NCBI GenBank assembly: GCA_963662795.1 | Contig: OY759746.1 | Coordinates: 832,001 to 896,000 of the forward strand | DNA length: 64,000 nucleotides | Direction of reading: 5' to 3' | Origin: Spirochaetia bacterium | GTDB lineage: Bacteria; Spirochaetota; Spirochaetia; CADAEX01 | In this document: positions 5,961 to 13,323 of the stretch, in pieces | Position numbering within the stretch: the stretch's first letter is position 1 | Layout: the number at the start of each line of letters is the position of its first letter | Translations under genes and position numbers: made by a program | The notes under the pieces: model-generated | The model's database searches: none | What the model saw: the letters and a program-made list of their open reading frames with translations, nothing else | Told to the model about the DNA's origin: nothing

Positions 5961-7103
5961 TTATTTTGATTTTTCCTGAAGCTCTTTTATAAATTCCCTG
6001 ACTTCTTCCGCCTCAATCCCGCTTTCCTTAAGCTGAAGTTCAAGCTTATCTTCAGTCAAACCGAACCTTTCCATAAAAACCTCCTGGGGCAGGCCGGTCG
6101 CAACAATAATCTCCCTGTAGGTATATTTACCCCTAATGGAATCGGTATCGAATTTCTCAAGATTTTCAGATGTTCCAAGGCTTGCCATTTTCCAGGAGAA
6201 ATCCCCCGTTGCAGTTGTCAGGCCGATAATTCCAAAAAATACCAGGAATGTAATAACAGTGAACCAGGCAGCCTTGATTTTTTTTCTTCCGGACGGGGAT
6301 GCAATAACAAGAGTGTTTTCAACAGGGCATTTATTGACACATTCGTTGCAATTTAAACATTCTGCATCAACAACTTCTTTTGCTTCATGGACTGTGATGT
6401 TTACAGGACATACTTCTGTACAAAGTTCACAGTTGATGCATGTCGCTTCGACCCTTTTAATCCTGAAATATCCTGCTTTACCGAGAATTCCGAGAAATGC
6501 TCCCATTGGACACATATATTTGCAGAAAAACCTGTCATAAAGAAAGGAACCGGCAAACGCAATAAGCAGAACAGCAAATCCTGCCGGAAATTCAATAAAA
6601 AGATCTGCTGACACGATATGGTGATATGCAGCCCACGGGTCATATGGCCTTATTACAAGATAGCCGAGCCTGAATGTTTCTTCCAGAACCAGAACCAGAA
6701 TCAGGTATTTCAGATACCGGAAATATTTATCAGCCTTTTCCGGTATAACAAATCTTTTCTTAAAAAAATTACCCCTCAGTTTTTCAAAAAATTCCTGAAG
6801 AGTTCCAAGCGGACAGATATTGCCGCAGAAAGTCCTTCTGAATGCAAATGCCAGGACAATTGTCGCAATAAGAAGAATAAAACTGCTGAGTGCAATCCTC
6901 TTTAAAAAGCCGCCGGCTGTTATAAAAATGTACAGTGACTCAAGTCCCCCGAACGGGCAGAAAGCATCTATCGGCGCTGCCTTGAAAGAAGTCCCGAACT
7001 GATGCAGCAGCCCCATTACTGTTGAAAGCAGCAGAACAAAAACAAGAACGGAATACCGGATAATTCTTGCTTTTTTATGCTCTGTTTTTAACGTTTTTGC
7101 CAT
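5961..7103 (-). CDS. Membrane 4Fe-4S protein (NapH/MauN/YccM-like polyferredoxin)
   Basis: CPFGG, FCGNICPLG and FCKYMCPMG motifs, two CxxCxxCxxxCP clusters and several TM helices. Confidence 0.88.
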   Translation of the reverse strand: MAKTLKTEHKKARIIRYSVLVFVLLLSTVMGLLHQFGTSFKAAPIDAFCPFGGLESLYIFITAGGFLKRIALSSFILLIATIVLAFAFRRTFCGNICPLGTLQEFFEKLRGNFFKKRFVIPEKADKYFRYLKYLILVLVLEETFRLGYLVIRPYDPWAAYHHIVSADLFIEFPAGFAVLLIAFAGSFLYDRFFCKYMCPMGAFLGILGKAGYFRIKRVEATCINCELCTEVCPVNITVHEAKEVVDAECLNCNECVNKCPVENTLVIASPSGRKKIKAAWFTVITFLVFFGIIGLTTATGDFSWKMASLGTSENLEKFDTDSIRGKYTYREIIVATGLPQEVFMERFGLTEDKLELQLKESGIEAEEVREFIKELQEKSK

Positions 7104-7295: not shown

Positions 7296-8513
7296 TCAGA
7301 TACCGTAATTTTTTCCGTAATTCTCAACTATATAATCGACATCCTTGTCTCCCCTTCCTGAAAGATTAAGAAGTATTGTTTTGTCTTTGGAAAGCTTCGG
7401 GGCAAGTTTAATTGCATATGCGACAGCGTGTGCGCTTTCAAGAGCCGGGATTATCCCCTCAACCCGTGAAAGGGTAAAAAAAGCATCTATAGCTTCCTTA
7501 TCATTGATGCATTCATATTTTACCCTGCCGATATCCTTGAGATAACTATGCTGAGGTCCGACACCGGGATAATCAAGACCGCTTGCCACGGAGTATACAG
7601 GTTTCGGCTCGCCTTTATCGTCCTGAAGCAGATAGCATTTAAAACCGTGAATCATCCCTGGTGTTCCAAGGGTAAGGGTACATGCGTGCTCACCGTCCTT
7701 GAATCCGGTCCCTGCAGGTTCAACTCCGTAAATATCAACATTCTTTTCATCAAGAAAAGCAGTAAAAAGGCCCATCGCATTTGATCCGCCGCCGACACAT
7801 GCAATCAGGTTATCAGGTAGTTTCCCTGTTTTTTCCATAAACTGATCCCTTGCCTCCTCACCCACAATCTTCTGAAAGTCCCGTACCATCATTGGAAAAG
7901 GATGAGGCCCGACTACAGAACCTATGGCATACAACTGATTAACGGGATCCTTGAGATACCCCATAAATGCTTCGTCAACTGCCTCTTTAAGTGTTTTAAG
8001 GCCTGATTTTACAGGTATGACATTGGCGCCGAGTATCTTCATTCTGACGACGTTCGGATGTTCCTTGGCTATATCCACTTCCCCCATATAAATATCACAT
8101 TCAAGTCCGAGCAACGCGGCCGCTGTCGCAAGCGCAACCCCGTGCTGCCCGGCGCCTGTTTCTGCGATTACCTTTTTCTTGCCCATCTTTTTTGCAAGCA
8201 GGGCTTCGCCCAGACAATGATTTATTTTATGTGCTCCGGTATGATTAAGATCCTCTCTTTTCAGATAAATCTGTGCACCTCCGAGACTTGATGAAAGACG
8301 GGATGCGTGAAATACAGGACTTGGACGGCCGACATAATCCCTGTAAAGGGATTTCAGTTCTGACTGGAAATCCCTGTCATCTTTTAATTCAAGATATGCG
8401 TCGGCAATCTGTTTAAGTATATCATTCAGTACATCGGGGACAAATGATCCCCCGTAATTTCCAAAAAAACCCTGCGCATCCGGTAATGTTTTTAAACTTG
8501 TTCCTGCTTCCAT
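7296..8513 (-). CDS. trpB: Tryptophan synthase beta chain (no adjacent trpA)
   Basis: [14 protein letters not shown] (PLP lysine), [28 protein letters not shown] and NLSGRGDKD. Confidence 0.96.
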
Positions 8514-8666: not shown

Positions 8667-8695
8667 TTGACATAGTATTAAGGTGGGTTTACGAT
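8667..8695 (+). promoter_or_regulatory. Sigma70-type promoter of the cstA operon
   Basis: TTGACA-17 bp-TACGAT, followed by a GGAGGT Shine-Dalgarno before ATG 8727. Confidence 0.75.
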
Positions 8696-8726: not shown

Positions 8727-10409
8727 ATGAGTACCATTATTTCGTTGGCGGCGCTGGTGATTTTTTTTGGTTTTTATTTTACTTTTGGTAAAAAACTCCA
8801 GAACAATCTGCTTAAATCACATGAAGCACCGGATGCCCCGTCAAAACGGCTGAGCGATGGGGTGGATTATGTTCCAACCAGCAAATTTGTTCTGTTCGGT
8901 CATCATTTCGCGTCAATTGCGGGCGCAGGTCCTATCGTAGGCCCGGCGATGGCTGTTGCGTGGGGATGGCTTCCTGGTCTTTTATGGATATGGTTTGGCA
9001 ATATCTTTATTGGAGCCATTCATGATTATCTTTCACTGACAGCTTCAGTAAGATATGACGGAAGATCTGTACAGTTTGTTGCCCAGGACCTTATCGGTAA
9101 AAAAGCAGGAAAGGCATTCGGCTGGTTTATTCTTTTCCTGTGTATTCTGGTTGTTGCGGCATTCGGAGCAATAGTATCAGGTCAGTTCGCAGCAGGCAAC
9201 GGAGAAGTCGCTTCTACATTCTTTCTCTTCTGTGCAGCTGCAATAATTCTCGGTTTTCTTATGTACAGGACGAAACTCGGCATGCTTGTAAGTACGCTTA
9301 TAGGTCTTGTACTTCTTGTACTGGCATTCTGGATTGGAAGCAATTACGGTATCAAGGCATCATCAAATACATGGTATCTGGTACTTCTCATTTATGTAGT
9401 AGTAGCTTCAGCCCTGCCGGTTAATTTCCTTCTTCAGCCGAGAGATTATCTCAACTCATTCCTTCTTTATTTCGGCCTTCTTGCGGGAGGACTTGCCGCA
9501 GTTATTGCATTCAAGGGATTTGATTCCGTTCCTGTATTTACAAGCTTCAGCGCAAAACTTATTGGCGGTCAGCCTTCACCATTCTGGCCGACAGTACCCC
9601 TTGTAATAGCATGCGGTGCCCTTTCAGGATTTCACTCACTTGTTGCTTCAGGAACAAGTTCAAAACAGCTGAGAGAAGAAAACGACGCACTTTTTGTCGG
9701 ATACGGAGCTATGCTTACTGAAGGTTTTCTTGCGACAATAGTTGTAGTTTCCATAGCCGGATTCGGAACACTTGCACTTGGAGACAAGGTAATGTCAACA
9801 GGCGCTCTACCCCGTTTCACACAGTCATTCGGGGCAATGGTCAACTCGGCCTTCCCATTCATGACAACTAAATTCATGGCACTGTTCGCATCAATCTGGG
9901 TTTCTTCATTTGCCCTTACAACACTTGATACAACAAACAGACTTGGACGCTATATAGTTGGAGAACTCGCGCTTCCACTCAAGGAAAAGTCCCCCGGAGC
10001 ATATTCAATGTTTGCAAATAAATGGGTTGCTTCATTTATTATCGCAATCTGCGGTATAGGACTTGCATGGACAGGAAACTATACAGTACTCTGGCCCGCA
10101 TTCTCGGGAGCCAATCAGCTTATCGCATCTATAGTAATGCTTACTGCAGCACTCTGGGTCAAGAAAAAACTGAACGACAAATATACCAATATTGTTCTTT
10201 ATCCTGCTATTATCCTCTGGATTACAGTAACTGCCGGTCTTATCTGGTATGAATTTGTAATTATACCGCTGCACTTCAAGGATATGGCTAACATAAAGAA
10301 TGTTGTTACAGGTTCTGTTGTCGGGGCAATTACACTTTTCATGCTTGTTATGAATGTTGTAATGATTCTCCAGTTTTCAAAAAATTTAAAAAATGTAAAA
10401 GCAGATTAA
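8727..10409 (+). CDS. cstA: Carbon starvation protein A family transporter (peptide/pyruvate:H+ symporter family)
   Basis: DGVDYVPT, FGHHFASIAGAGPIVGP, LLQPRDYLN, IACGALSGFHSL, GYGAMLTEG and TTLDTTNRLGR. Confidence 0.95.
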   Translation: MSTIISLAALVIFFGFYFTFGKKLQNNLLKSHEAPDAPSKRLSDGVDYVPTSKFVLFGHHFASIAGAGPIVGPAMAVAWGWLPGLLWIWFGNIFIGAIHDYLSLTASVRYDGRSVQFVAQDLIGKKAGKAFGWFILFLCILVVAAFGAIVSGQFAAGNGEVASTFFLFCAAAIILGFLMYRTKLGMLVSTLIGLVLLVLAFWIGSNYGIKASSNTWYLVLLIYVVVASALPVNFLLQPRDYLNSFLLYFGLLAGGLAAVIAFKGFDSVPVFTSFSAKLIGGQPSPFWPTVPLVIACGALSGFHSLVASGTSSKQLREENDALFVGYGAMLTEGFLATIVVVSIAGFGTLALGDKVMSTGALPRFTQSFGAMVNSAFPFMTTKFMALFASIWVSSFALTTLDTTNRLGRYIVGELALPLKEKSPGAYSMFANKWVASFIIAICGIGLAWTGNYTVLWPAFSGANQLIASIVMLTAALWVKKKLNDKYTNIVLYPAIILWITVTAGLIWYEFVIIPLHFKDMANIKNVVTGSVVGAITLFMLVMNVVMILQFSKNLKNVKAD

Positions 10410-10507: not shown

Positions 10508-10795
10508 ATGATCAATTTCAAAAAAATCCGCAAAGGCATTGGCCTGTTCTGGGATGTTGTGGTACAGGTACAGCGCAATAAAGCTACAGAAATAATAGAA
10601 TTTGAACTTAAAGAGCTGGAAAATATCTTTGTAATTCTTCTTATGGGAAGCTTCATAGGGCTTCCGTCTCCCCCTGCGGCTATGGCTATGGAACTTATTC
10701 CGTATCTTGAAGATGAGATAAGGCTTATGACTGCAAGGTCGGACTTTGCCCAGGATCCAATCGGCGGTCTTGCCGGTATACTGGATATTGGATAG
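10508..10795 (+). CDS. Small CstA-associated protein (resembles the cory-CC-star family but lacks the C-terminal CC)
   Basis: Core ELENIFVILLMGSFIGLPSPP...ELIPYLEDE resembles small proteins found between cstA and arsA-like genes. Confidence 0.7.
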   Translation: MINFKKIRKGIGLFWDVVVQVQRNKATEIIEFELKELENIFVILLMGSFIGLPSPPAAMAMELIPYLEDEIRLMTARSDFAQDPIGGLAGILDIG

Positions 10796-10883: not shown

Positions 10884-11816
10884 ATGAAAAAAGTCCTTTT
10901 TTTTATGGGGAAGGGAGGCGTCGGTAAAACAACATTGTCCTCTTCGACAGCATTCCAGCTCAGCCGCAAAGGAAACAAAGTCCTCATTGTTTCACTGGAC
11001 CCGGCACACAATCTCGGCGACGTTTTCTACTGCAATCTGAAAAATGATAAAAGCAGCATCTCCCCCGGCTTAGACGGTATTGAAATCGACCTTGCAAAAT
11101 GGGTTATCAAATACCTTGAAACAAGCAAAGACGAAATCAGGGACACATACAGATACAATGTAAGCATAAATATTGACTCGTATATTAATATTCTGAAATA
11201 TTCTCCCGGGACCGAAGAGTATGCGGTCCTATGGGCAATAGAGTATATCTATACCACCTATCACAGCCAATATGATTACATAATTTTTGACACCCCGCCT
11301 ACAGCACTTACCATGAGGTTTCTTGCCATGCCTTCCATCTCCATGATGTGGATAAATGAACTTAAAAGCATGAGGGAAAAAATCCTGGCCAAAAGGCAGA
11401 CAATTTTAAAACTGAACCCTGATGCTACTGTAATAAAAGGAGTTACAGAAGTAAAAGACGATGCAGTTTCCGGAAAACTGGGGTCAATCCGTACAAGACT
11501 TGAAAAGCTGCATACAATTTTTTCAGAAGAAAGCTATATGTCAATTGTTATAAATAATGATGAATTATCCCTGTCTGAATCACGCAGGATTCTGCAGGAA
11601 CTTGACAAGCTTGATGTAAAAATAAACAGTATATGCCTGAATAAGCTTAATCCTGAAATAACTGATCTTGAGAACTTAAAAAAGAAATTCAATAGTTTTC
11701 CGGTCTTTACATCTTACCAGCTGCCGGAAGGTCTGATAAGAAGAGAAGATCTTGGACGGATTCAAATTGACGAACTTGTAAACAATATAATAGAAACAAC
11801 CAGGGGCAATGAATGA
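10884..11816 (+). CDS. Single-domain ArsA/GET3/TRC40-family ATPase
   Basis: Deviant Walker A GKGGVGKTT, switch I SLDPAHNLGD, PGTEE and switch II FDTPPTALT. Confidence 0.9.
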   Translation: MKKVLFFMGKGGVGKTTLSSSTAFQLSRKGNKVLIVSLDPAHNLGDVFYCNLKNDKSSISPGLDGIEIDLAKWVIKYLETSKDEIRDTYRYNVSINIDSYINILKYSPGTEEYAVLWAIEYIYTTYHSQYDYIIFDTPPTALTMRFLAMPSISMMWINELKSMREKILAKRQTILKLNPDATVIKGVTEVKDDAVSGKLGSIRTRLEKLHTIFSEESYMSIVINNDELSLSESRRILQELDKLDVKINSICLNKLNPEITDLENLKKKFNSFPVFTSYQLPEGLIRREDLGRIQIDELVNNIIETTRGNE

Positions 11817-12463
11817 ACATTTATATTTTTCCGCTGATAGCATTGGCAATTTTTGCGACACTCGGATACTTCAGGGGCAAGAAAAAAAACGCATGGATAT
11901 CTGGATGGATAAGCCGGGAAGCCGAAGAGGCCCTAAAACCTGAAGATACAGACTACGTTAATATAGGCGGAACAATAGGATACAATTTTACCTATAAAAT
12001 GAAAGGACAGTTCCGTGAAGCATCAGGCACCATAACGATGCTCCCCCGCCAGTCAGTATTATATTTTCCCATCTCTCTTCTCACGGCAAAACATGACAGA
12101 GTCTATATCAACCTAAAAGCTAACGGTAAACTTGCCGGGGAAGGGCACATAGTTTCAGAAAAATACATAAGATCCGCGCGCAGCCTTATTTCCGGTTACA
12201 ATAATTTTCACAATACTGAATACTCATCTAACGGATCAAAATTTTATATCCTTTCAAAAACCCGGGCTGTTGAAAAAATGCTTATAAGTTTTGTTGATAA
12301 AACTGAATCAATTATTAATCTTCGCCATTTCTGCTGTTTTCCGGATAATAAAAATTTTTTTATTTTCATTAAACCGGTTCGGGGAGAACTTATGAAATTT
12401 CTGAAATCTGCAATTCCCGAACTTGATGTTTTTTATATTAAAGGTAAAAAAAATGATGAATGA
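11813..12463 (+). CDS. Membrane-anchored hypothetical protein, possibly CCDC47/DUF1682-like
   Basis: N-terminal TM followed by YFRGKKKN..I..W and LPRQSVL...D.V.I; ATGA overlap with the ATPase gene. The ORF is solid, the family call is tentative. Confidence 0.6.
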   Translation: MNIYIFPLIALAIFATLGYFRGKKKNAWISGWISREAEEALKPEDTDYVNIGGTIGYNFTYKMKGQFREASGTITMLPRQSVLYFPISLLTAKHDRVYINLKANGKLAGEGHIVSEKYIRSARSLISGYNNFHNTEYSSNGSKFYILSKTRAVEKMLISFVDKTESIINLRHFCCFPDNKNFFIFIKPVRGELMKFLKSAIPELDVFYIKGKKNDE

Positions 12464-12728
12464 GGAAATGAAGAAAAAGATTGATGCAGTTCTTGATACA
12501 GTAAAAGATCCGGAATCTTTCCGAAGTGTGTCACAGCTTAACCTTGTAAAAAAAGTTACCTACAGCGAAAGTCATAAAAAACTTGTTGTACAGACAGACA
12601 TTGGGGAACCCCGTTCGACCTGCATAGTCTGCGGTGTTGTAAACGAAACACTAAGACAGTCGATAATGAGGAATCTGAAAGAAGAATTTGATAAAAATTT
12701 CCCTGACCTGGATGTTGAAGTTATTTAA
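12453..12728 (+). CDS. DUF59/MIP18-like (Fe-S cluster assembly P domain) small protein with CxxC
   Basis: LDTVKDPE...VSQLNLV motif typical of DUF59, plus TCIVC. ATG 12453/12456 overlaps the upstream stop. Confidence 0.72.
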   Translation: MMNEEMKKKIDAVLDTVKDPESFRSVSQLNLVKKVTYSESHKKLVVQTDIGEPRSTCIVCGVVNETLRQSIMRNLKEEFDKNFPDLDVEVI

Positions 12729-12755: not shown

Positions 12756-13145
12756 TTATAAAGTCCTGCCTGTCTTTACCACAAGTTGCGATAATGTAAA
12801 TCCAAGAAATATCAGGCTTATTCCAATTATTGTATTGATAAGTATATTTAAAACTGCAGCACGAATCTCGGCTTTTGCAAAGAGATTGAATGTTTCAAGT
12901 CCGAATGCTGAGAATGTTGTAAACCCGCCCGCAAGACCTGCAAAAATAAAAAGCCTTATATTCGGAGAAATAATCCATTTATCAAAAAATCCTGAAAAAA
13001 AACCAATTAAAAGACATCCCGTAAGGTTGACGGCAAGGGTGCCGACCGGAAAGGATGTTCCGAACAGGCTGTGTGTCCATTTTGAGAGCAGGTACCTGAG
13101 CAAACCGCCCGTCCCGCTTCCGATTGCAATATAAAGATATTCCAT
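12756..13145 (-). CDS. crcB: Fluoride channel FluC/CrcB
   Basis: GGLLRY, FPVGTLAVNLTGC and GGFTTFSAF. True start is ATG 13145 (GGAGGA SD), not 13274. Confidence 0.93.
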   Translation of the reverse strand: MEYLYIAIGSGTGGLLRYLLSKWTHSLFGTSFPVGTLAVNLTGCLLIGFFSGFFDKWIISPNIRLFIFAGLAGGFTTFSAFGLETFNLFAKAEIRAAVLNILINTIIGISLIFLGFTLSQLVVKTGRTL

Positions 13146-13323
13146 ATCCTCCCAGTATATTGATAAAAAATATTTATGGGAATAAGAATCATATTTTTTT
13201 AAAGTCTGAAAGAAAGTTATTTTTTCATTTTCGTTGATTATCAGTATGTGATATGCTATCCTTTTTAACAGCAATAACTATATATAATTATCTTAAGCAG
13301 CTTGACAGGGGAGAATTGCCATT

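Follow-up and report, generated by a model that had tools for sequence, protein, structure and literature searches.

The cstA operon of a spirochaete encodes a small single-pass membrane protein, CstY, whose structural model supports its assignment as a prokaryotic homologue of eukaryotic CCDC47, containing the transmembrane (TM) helix and the globular domain, but lacking the C-terminal latch helices. The gene lies in a stretch of 64,000 nucleotides (contig OY759746.1, positions 832,001 to 896,000, Spirochaetia bacterium), the whole of which is referred to here as the window. The cstA-cstX-arsA-cstY operon as such has been known since 2010, and it is the CCDC47 fold of CstY that is the addition. 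Common ancestry of CstY and CCDC47 is, in our judgement, very probable, mainly on account of the structure, to which an N-terminal sequence motif contributes.

The AlphaFold2 model of CstY, calculated from 130 sequences without templates, is of high quality (pLDDT 96.5, pTM 0.91). A Foldseek search with such a model had been named beforehand as a test of the original prediction, which had compared this reading frame with CCDC47 by eye. Against the PDB it returned exactly three matches at E ≤ 0.001, all of them CCDC47 chains and covering the globular domain (7tm3_4, E 2.4e-9, TMq 0.71; 9i78_4, E 3.4e-8; 6w6l_7, E 1.3e-5), followed by TtfA (6t84) at E 2.5e-3. In a VIA-align fold search of the model against 48,161 representative chains, mammalian CCDC47 aligned with 210 of the 216 residues (Z 17.2, rmsd 2.9 Å; residues 1-211 of the model corresponding to 135-397 of the chain) and Chaetomium CCDC47 with 207 (Z 16.0, rmsd 2.8, chain residues 76-366); below these came TtfA (Z 9.7, rmsd 4.1, 152 aligned) and then matches at Z 6.5-6.6 and lower. 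At the level of the fold, the proposed resemblance has thus been borne out. Even the CCDC47 chain without a TM (6w6l_7) gave Z 11.6 over 186 residues, and the fold match is therefore independent of the membrane helix. Structural identity between CstY and CCDC47 amounts to 10-12%. Among the weaker matches of the model (Z 4.3-6.6), folds of the type III secretion chaperone or YbjN-like kind predominate.

The CCDC47 alignments stop at residue 397 in the mammalian and at residue 366 in the Chaetomium chain. According to the available part of the structural report, Chaetomium CCDC47 was docked as segments 76-370, 371-417 and 417-447, and its C-terminal latch helices sit between the ribosome and Sec61 (PMC12572126). 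Compared with these segments, the end of the alignment indicates that CstY corresponds to the TM and globular unit, stopping where the latch begins. As far as the available accounts go, the CCDC47 coordinates come from predicted models that had been fitted into cryo-EM maps. Release dates of the matched structures lie between 2019 and 2025 and the training set of AlphaFold2 ends in 2018, so memorisation of the CCDC47 fold is an unlikely source of the match.

The cstY gene (11813-12463, + strand) encodes 216 amino acids, its ATG overlapping the stop codon of the preceding ATPase gene (ATGA) and its own stop overlapping the start of a downstream MIP18-like gene; it is single-copy in the source genome. 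A single hydrophobic segment (residues 2-20, positions 11816-11872, +; KD19 1.81, runner-up 1.02) forms the predicted N-terminal membrane helix, which runs on into a basic juxtamembrane helix (helix 5-41 in the model), and residues 42-211 (11936-12445, +) constitute, according to the AlphaFold2 model and the alignment, the predicted cytoplasmic alpha/beta domain. Exactly one segment above 1.6 is found in 137 of 150 family members, none in 10 and two in 3 (alignment A8). Because Lys and Arg are commoner after the TM than before it in all 150 members (mean 3.9 vs 0.09), the positive-inside rule predicts an N-out topology with the C-terminal domain in the cytoplasm. Members are 199-236 amino acids long with at most 18 residues past the last helix (150/150), which leaves no C-terminal coiled coil; no longer or fused form turned up in a dedicated search, which is weak evidence in itself. 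The original prediction had described this reading frame, one TM followed by a cytosolic alpha/beta domain, and the missing coiled coil; the frame is real, the three window motifs quoted there begin at residues 19, 57 and 73, and the topology agrees with the single hydrophobic segment observed, with the domain present in the model and with the cytoplasmic side predicted from the basic residues. Among the 150 members, G22 and N26 of the juxtamembrane helix are conserved in 94-96%, and G52, G56, P78, R79, P86, D95 and H112 of the domain are near-invariant.

By its size, topology and gene order, the protein is a member of the CstY family of Castillo and Saier (2010), whose paper reports, in the part available, cstA-cstX-arsA operons with a single-TM CstY of ~210 amino acids in five archaea (PMC2963123), with the same cstA, cstX and single-domain ArsA-homologue partners as here, and a cstY operon without arsA in Hyperthermus (PMC2963123, section 3.2). 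That part of the paper is confined to the five archaea and assigns neither a fold nor a homologue to CstY (PMC2963123), whereas here the family also includes Spirochaetota, Cloacimonadota and WOR-3/TA06, a MIP18-like CxxC gene lies alongside, and cstY persists in genomes without the ATPase. Among the openly accessible papers searched, we found no experimental test of the cstA-cstX-arsA-cstY operon and none linking CstY or TtfA to CCDC47.

In the window, cstY is the fourth of five co-oriented genes. The first, cstA (8727-10409, +), encodes a 560-aa nutrient transporter of the CstA family (PF02554, E 1.4e-126), the putative partner of CstY, and the second, cstX (10508-10795, +), a helical protein of 95 amino acids, which is DUF7990/PF25952-like in the Atlas and matches cory-CC-star (NF041419) weakly. 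They are followed by a single-domain ATPase of the Get3/ArsA family (10884-11816, +; TIGR00345, 183 bits vs a cut-off of 135), having intact P-loop, switch I and switch II motifs and no C-terminal CxxC. Overlapping the cstY stop, the last gene (12453-12728, +) encodes a MIP18/FeS_assembly_P-like (DUF59) CxxC protein of ~90 amino acids, its true start probably being the ATG at 12453 or 12456; PF01883 is matched at E ≤ 0.01 by 20 of 42 members of this MIP18-like group. A zinc-binding CxxC is typical of eukaryotic Get3; in the loci studied here, CxxC occurs in 39 of the 42 MIP18-like members, while of 53 Get3-like ATPases only one has a late CxxC. The scan for promoters and terminators remained at chance level (13 sites found, 13.2 expected); a sigma-70-like site (8667-8695, +; 10/12) lies ~30 bases before cstA, such sites being overall at chance level. 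A CrcB/Fluc fluoride channel gene (12756-13274, -; PF02537, E 1.9e-25, residues 47-159), the true start of which probably is downstream of the listed TTG, converges on the end of the operon, and the divergent upstream genes (7296-8513 and 5961-7103, both -) appear by eye to encode a tryptophan synthase beta-type protein and a 4Fe-4S membrane protein.

At E ≤ 0.001 the CstY family comprises 233 clusters at 50% identity, with named members in Spirochaetota, Cloacimonadota and WOR-3/TA06 bacteria as well as in archaea, the archaeal homologues including some labelled Sulfolobales, Desulfurococcaceae, Zestosphaera, Nezhaarchaeales and Nitrososphaerales. Its distribution is patchy: of the genomes searched, cstY was present in 18 of 401 from Spirochaetota and in 6 of 201 from Cloacimonadota. 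After removal of 24 of 78 GTDB loci with less than 3.3 kb of upstream flank, cstA, cstX and the ATPase gene were all present in 54 of 54 loci, which are close relatives retrieved with a spirochaete alignment, and the MIP18-like gene in 46. Metagenome loci, mostly of archaeal type, numbered 42, from which 15 with short flanks (<3.3 kb upstream) were dropped; the remaining 27 contain cstA in 22, cstX in 24 and the ATPase gene in 25 cases. In five of the 27, cstA is missing nearby, and two of these five are without any operon gene (judged on the flanks only); L135, L140 and L157 carry the ATPase gene beside cstY and no cstA in the flank. Orphan cstY copies are found in L128, L134 and the f52 genomes. 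Gene order also varies: three loci (L068, L069, L070) contain two cstY paralogues each, between which the MIP18-like gene and cstA have been rearranged, cstY is divergent from cstA-cstX-ATPase in L151 and L158, and in L153 cstA is inverted between the ATPase gene and cstY. In L166-L169 an orphan cstY lies between a folK-like gene and an mcsA/mcsB-like cluster, which adjoins cstY directly in three of them and is separated by one gene in L169; in three of the four a clpC-like gene follows the cluster (all names by eye).

Co-retention points to CstA as the probable partner of CstY. In the same 401 Spirochaetota genomes cstA was found in 201, cstX in 20 and cstY in 18, and all genomes with an intact cstY also contain cstA (17/17, at a base rate of 201/401). 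In the eighteenth genome (G192, 100% complete), where no match to cstA was found, cstY is interrupted by one stop and one frameshift. Eight of the 17 genomes with intact cstY, 60-96% complete, have no CstX match and only P-loop fragments matching the Get3 ATPase profile; in four of them (G113, G022, G155, G162) cstY stands head-to-head with cstA, and in the other four (G271, G111, G160, G226) it lies apart, with cstA elsewhere in the genome. As these eight form two lineages, they should be counted as about two events and not as eight. We regard CstA as the likely partner because of the 17/17 co-retention, the eight genomes without ATPase and CstX, and the broken cstY of G192.

In a FastTree phylogeny of 49 CstA proteins (from 50 selected loci after exclusion of the partial L170; drawn at the midpoint, without an outgroup), the three CstAs with detached cstY that were placed nest among operon CstAs, and four CstAs accompanied by cstY only are sister (support 98) to four with cstX and ATPase and no cstY found, two of the latter loci ending at contig edges. 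Operons of cstA-cstX-ATPase without cstY are present in G188 and G298. Altogether, 184 of the 201 cstA genomes have no intact cstY, including G241 and G276, whose CstA shares the clade, and CstA therefore does not require CstY. The data suggest two accessory sub-modules, CstY on the one hand and CstX with the ATPase on the other, both retained with CstA but subject to independent loss. The CstAs of G111, G160 and G226 (L199:4474-6546, L200:4930-7002, L201:2833-4911), where cstY is detached and the ATPase missing, are 691-693 amino acids long and carry an insertion of ~100-130 residues near profile position 205-216. A complex prediction of CstA, CstX and CstY, run without controls, gave no answer (score 0.00) and is no evidence either way.

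What CstY may do for CstA can be approached from the known carriers of its fold. With CCDC47/DUF1682 (PF07946; PDB 7TM3/7TUT, 9I78, 6W6L), the PAT-complex subunit of the multipass translocon, it shares one TM and the same alpha/beta domain (Z 16-17, 207-210 residues aligned), the basic juxtamembrane helix and the predicted C-in topology. Unlike CCDC47, CstY has no luminal domain, signal peptide or latch helices with coiled coil, its domain is more compact (~210 residues spanning ~260-290 in CCDC47), it scores below the Pfam cut-off, no Asterix was found with it, and it is tied to one transporter instead of the translocon. TtfA (MSMEG_0736/Rv0383c; PDB 6T84; PF28092), an accessory protein of MmpL3, is bacterial like CstY and consists of an N-terminal TM and a domain of ~180 residues with a related fold (Z 9.7 over 152 aligned residues); it is, however, structurally more distant than CCDC47 (rmsd 4.1, 7-11% identity), essential, confined to mycolate producers and paired with an RND transporter, and its family was absent among the Pfam matches listed for CstY. 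TtfA is the only non-CCDC47 match above Z 8 with the CstY model, implying kinship of CCDC47 and TtfA.

Our favoured, still tentative reading, to which we would give slightly less than an even chance, is that CstY acts as a dedicated helper in the folding, assembly or stability of CstA. CstY would be anchored N-out by its single TM, with the domain laid on the cytoplasmic face of the membrane; there it would bind CstA and, once bound, may help it to fold, assemble or persist, while the Get3-like ATPase and CstX would form the second, separately losable accessory sub-module. This role is proposed by analogy with CCDC47 and TtfA, the two known carriers of the fold: CCDC47 binds Asterix through its TM and sits beside nascent multipass proteins, as the available accounts describe, and TtfA binds one specific multipass transporter, MmpL3, with residues 1-205 including the TM being needed (PMC6593404, available part). 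The preference for an assembly or stability role over a regulatory one is an inference, and it should be noted that a shared CCDC47 fold does not show a shared function.

The same co-retention with cstA would also be expected of a permanent regulatory subunit of the mature transporter, which would gate or tune transport and perhaps sense a cytoplasmic ligand via a surface formed by R79, D95 and H112. These near-invariant polar residues could form a binding site, and TtfA, according to the available part of the report, stays complexed with MmpL3, for which substrate delivery has been proposed (PMC6593404). We nevertheless consider a regulatory subunit rather unlikely: CCDC47 resembles CstY in fold far more (Z 17) than TtfA does (Z 9.7), and the co-occurrence fits an assembly helper equally.

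CstY might also be the membrane receptor or coupler of the Get3-like ATPase, linking, together with CstX, ATP hydrolysis to transport by CstA or delivering CstA segments to the membrane, which is close to the proposal of Castillo and Saier in the available text (PMC2963123). The ATPase gene and cstX adjoin cstY in all 54 GTDB loci and in 25 and 24, respectively, of the 27 metagenome loci, the ATPase and cstY genes overlap at ATGA, and in three of the metagenome loci the ATPase gene has stayed next to cstY in a flank that contains no cstA. The 54/54 count, however, stems from close relatives retrieved with the spirochaete alignment, intact cstY occurs without a full-length ATPase or CstX match in eight of 17 genomes, and cstA-cstX-ATPase occurs without cstY in G188 and G298, making such a coupler unlikely.

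The dedicated helper that we favour must further be distinguished from a general prokaryotic equivalent of the PAT complex, serving many multipass proteins at SecYEG. The agreement in fold, over the full length, with the CCDC47 TM and globular domain, the occurrence of CstY in both bacteria and archaea and the few orphan copies would be compatible with it. It is nonetheless very unlikely, as CstY has none of the latch helices by which CCDC47 contacts Sec61 and the ribosome, the family is patchily distributed, and cstY is present in one copy tied to one transporter gene. The TM of CCDC47 binds Asterix, as stated in the available part of the report (PMC12572126); in the source genome, the best match to Asterix (PF03669) has an E of 0.197 with a stop inside, and none exceeds the cut-off. 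The CstX model (pLDDT 77.8) yielded no Foldseek match at E ≤ 0.001 and nothing Asterix-like. CstX as an Asterix counterpart is not supported, the Atlas assigning it to DUF7990 and the model displaying a long helix and a short hydrophobic hairpin instead of three TMs. With the latch missing, no Asterix found in the genome and the CstX model unmatched, CstY is best taken as a CCDC47 homologue and not as a sign of a PAT complex, although a very remote Asterix homologue remains conceivable; the label of PAT-complex subunit in the original prediction is not supported, the protein being the operon member named CstY in 2010. In the available parts of the PAT-complex literature, prokaryotes are stated to be without PAT components.

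In sequence, the likeness of CstY to CCDC47 is real but weak. Within the family, 46 of 130 members match PF07946 at E ≤ 1 (best 6.2e-5), compared with 5 for the next family, and among 104 distant members 14 match at E ≤ 0.01, the best at 22.7 bits, none of the 104 reaching the Pfam gathering score of 27.7 bits. The matches mostly cover profile positions 7-49, and a few stretches reach 97-157. When the TM and juxtamembrane region was removed from the best full-length scorers, none of six still matched, and the PF07946 signal therefore depends on this helix; with 131 TM-less members derived from the loci, a set different from the 130 full-length sequences, CCDC47 was absent from the best 25 families. 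The CstY query itself has no Pfam CCDC47 match, single-sequence Pfam and NCBIfam scans being uninformative, and a whole-genome search with PF07946 in five genomes failed to detect cstY in four, the fifth giving it at E 1.9. PDB sequences, searched by sequence and by profile with the query and alignments A1, A2 and A3 (A3 having been assembled on purpose from the query and its 14 relatives scoring highest against PF07946), gave no CCDC47 at E ≤ 10. In the ESM Atlas, the nearest named clusters are CCDC47 and TtfA (each 0.77), which is a lead only. The PF07946 matches seen in the family are TM-dependent and stay below the cut-off. A convergent likeness, produced by attaching a TM helix to an alpha/beta fold of the common type III secretion chaperone/YbjN-like kind, which the 10-12% identity, the lack of HMM signal outside the TM region and the Z 4.3-6.6 matches to such chaperones (indicating a core arrangement that is not rare) would permit, is hardly credible against Z 17.2 and rmsd 2.9 over 210/216 residues including the TM-to-domain geometry, ~10 Z units above background folds, and against PF07946 enrichment at matching N-terminal profile positions with some stretches to positions 123-157.

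CstY, which occurs in bacteria and archaea, thus comprises the TM and globular portion of CCDC47 in full, and the fold search that revealed this also ties mycobacterial TtfA to the fold. In the available parts of the literature, functions are assigned to the latch helices and to Asterix, and the globular domain of CCDC47 is described only through its ribosome contacts; a version without latch and Asterix, with a single probable client, makes the job of this domain directly testable in a simple system. CstY further offers a handle on the origin of the eukaryotic multipass translocon. It is conceivable, although the balance is against it, that the ancestor of CCDC47 was a prokaryotic membrane-protein chaperone dedicated to its client, that CstY, TtfA and CCDC47 form one superfamily, and that the general translocon factor of eukaryotes arose from an archaeal protein of the CstY type through the addition of latch helices and Asterix. 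If true, the cstA operon would represent a private biogenesis line for one transporter, in which Get3 and CCDC47, both biogenesis factors of the eukaryotic ER, have homologues.
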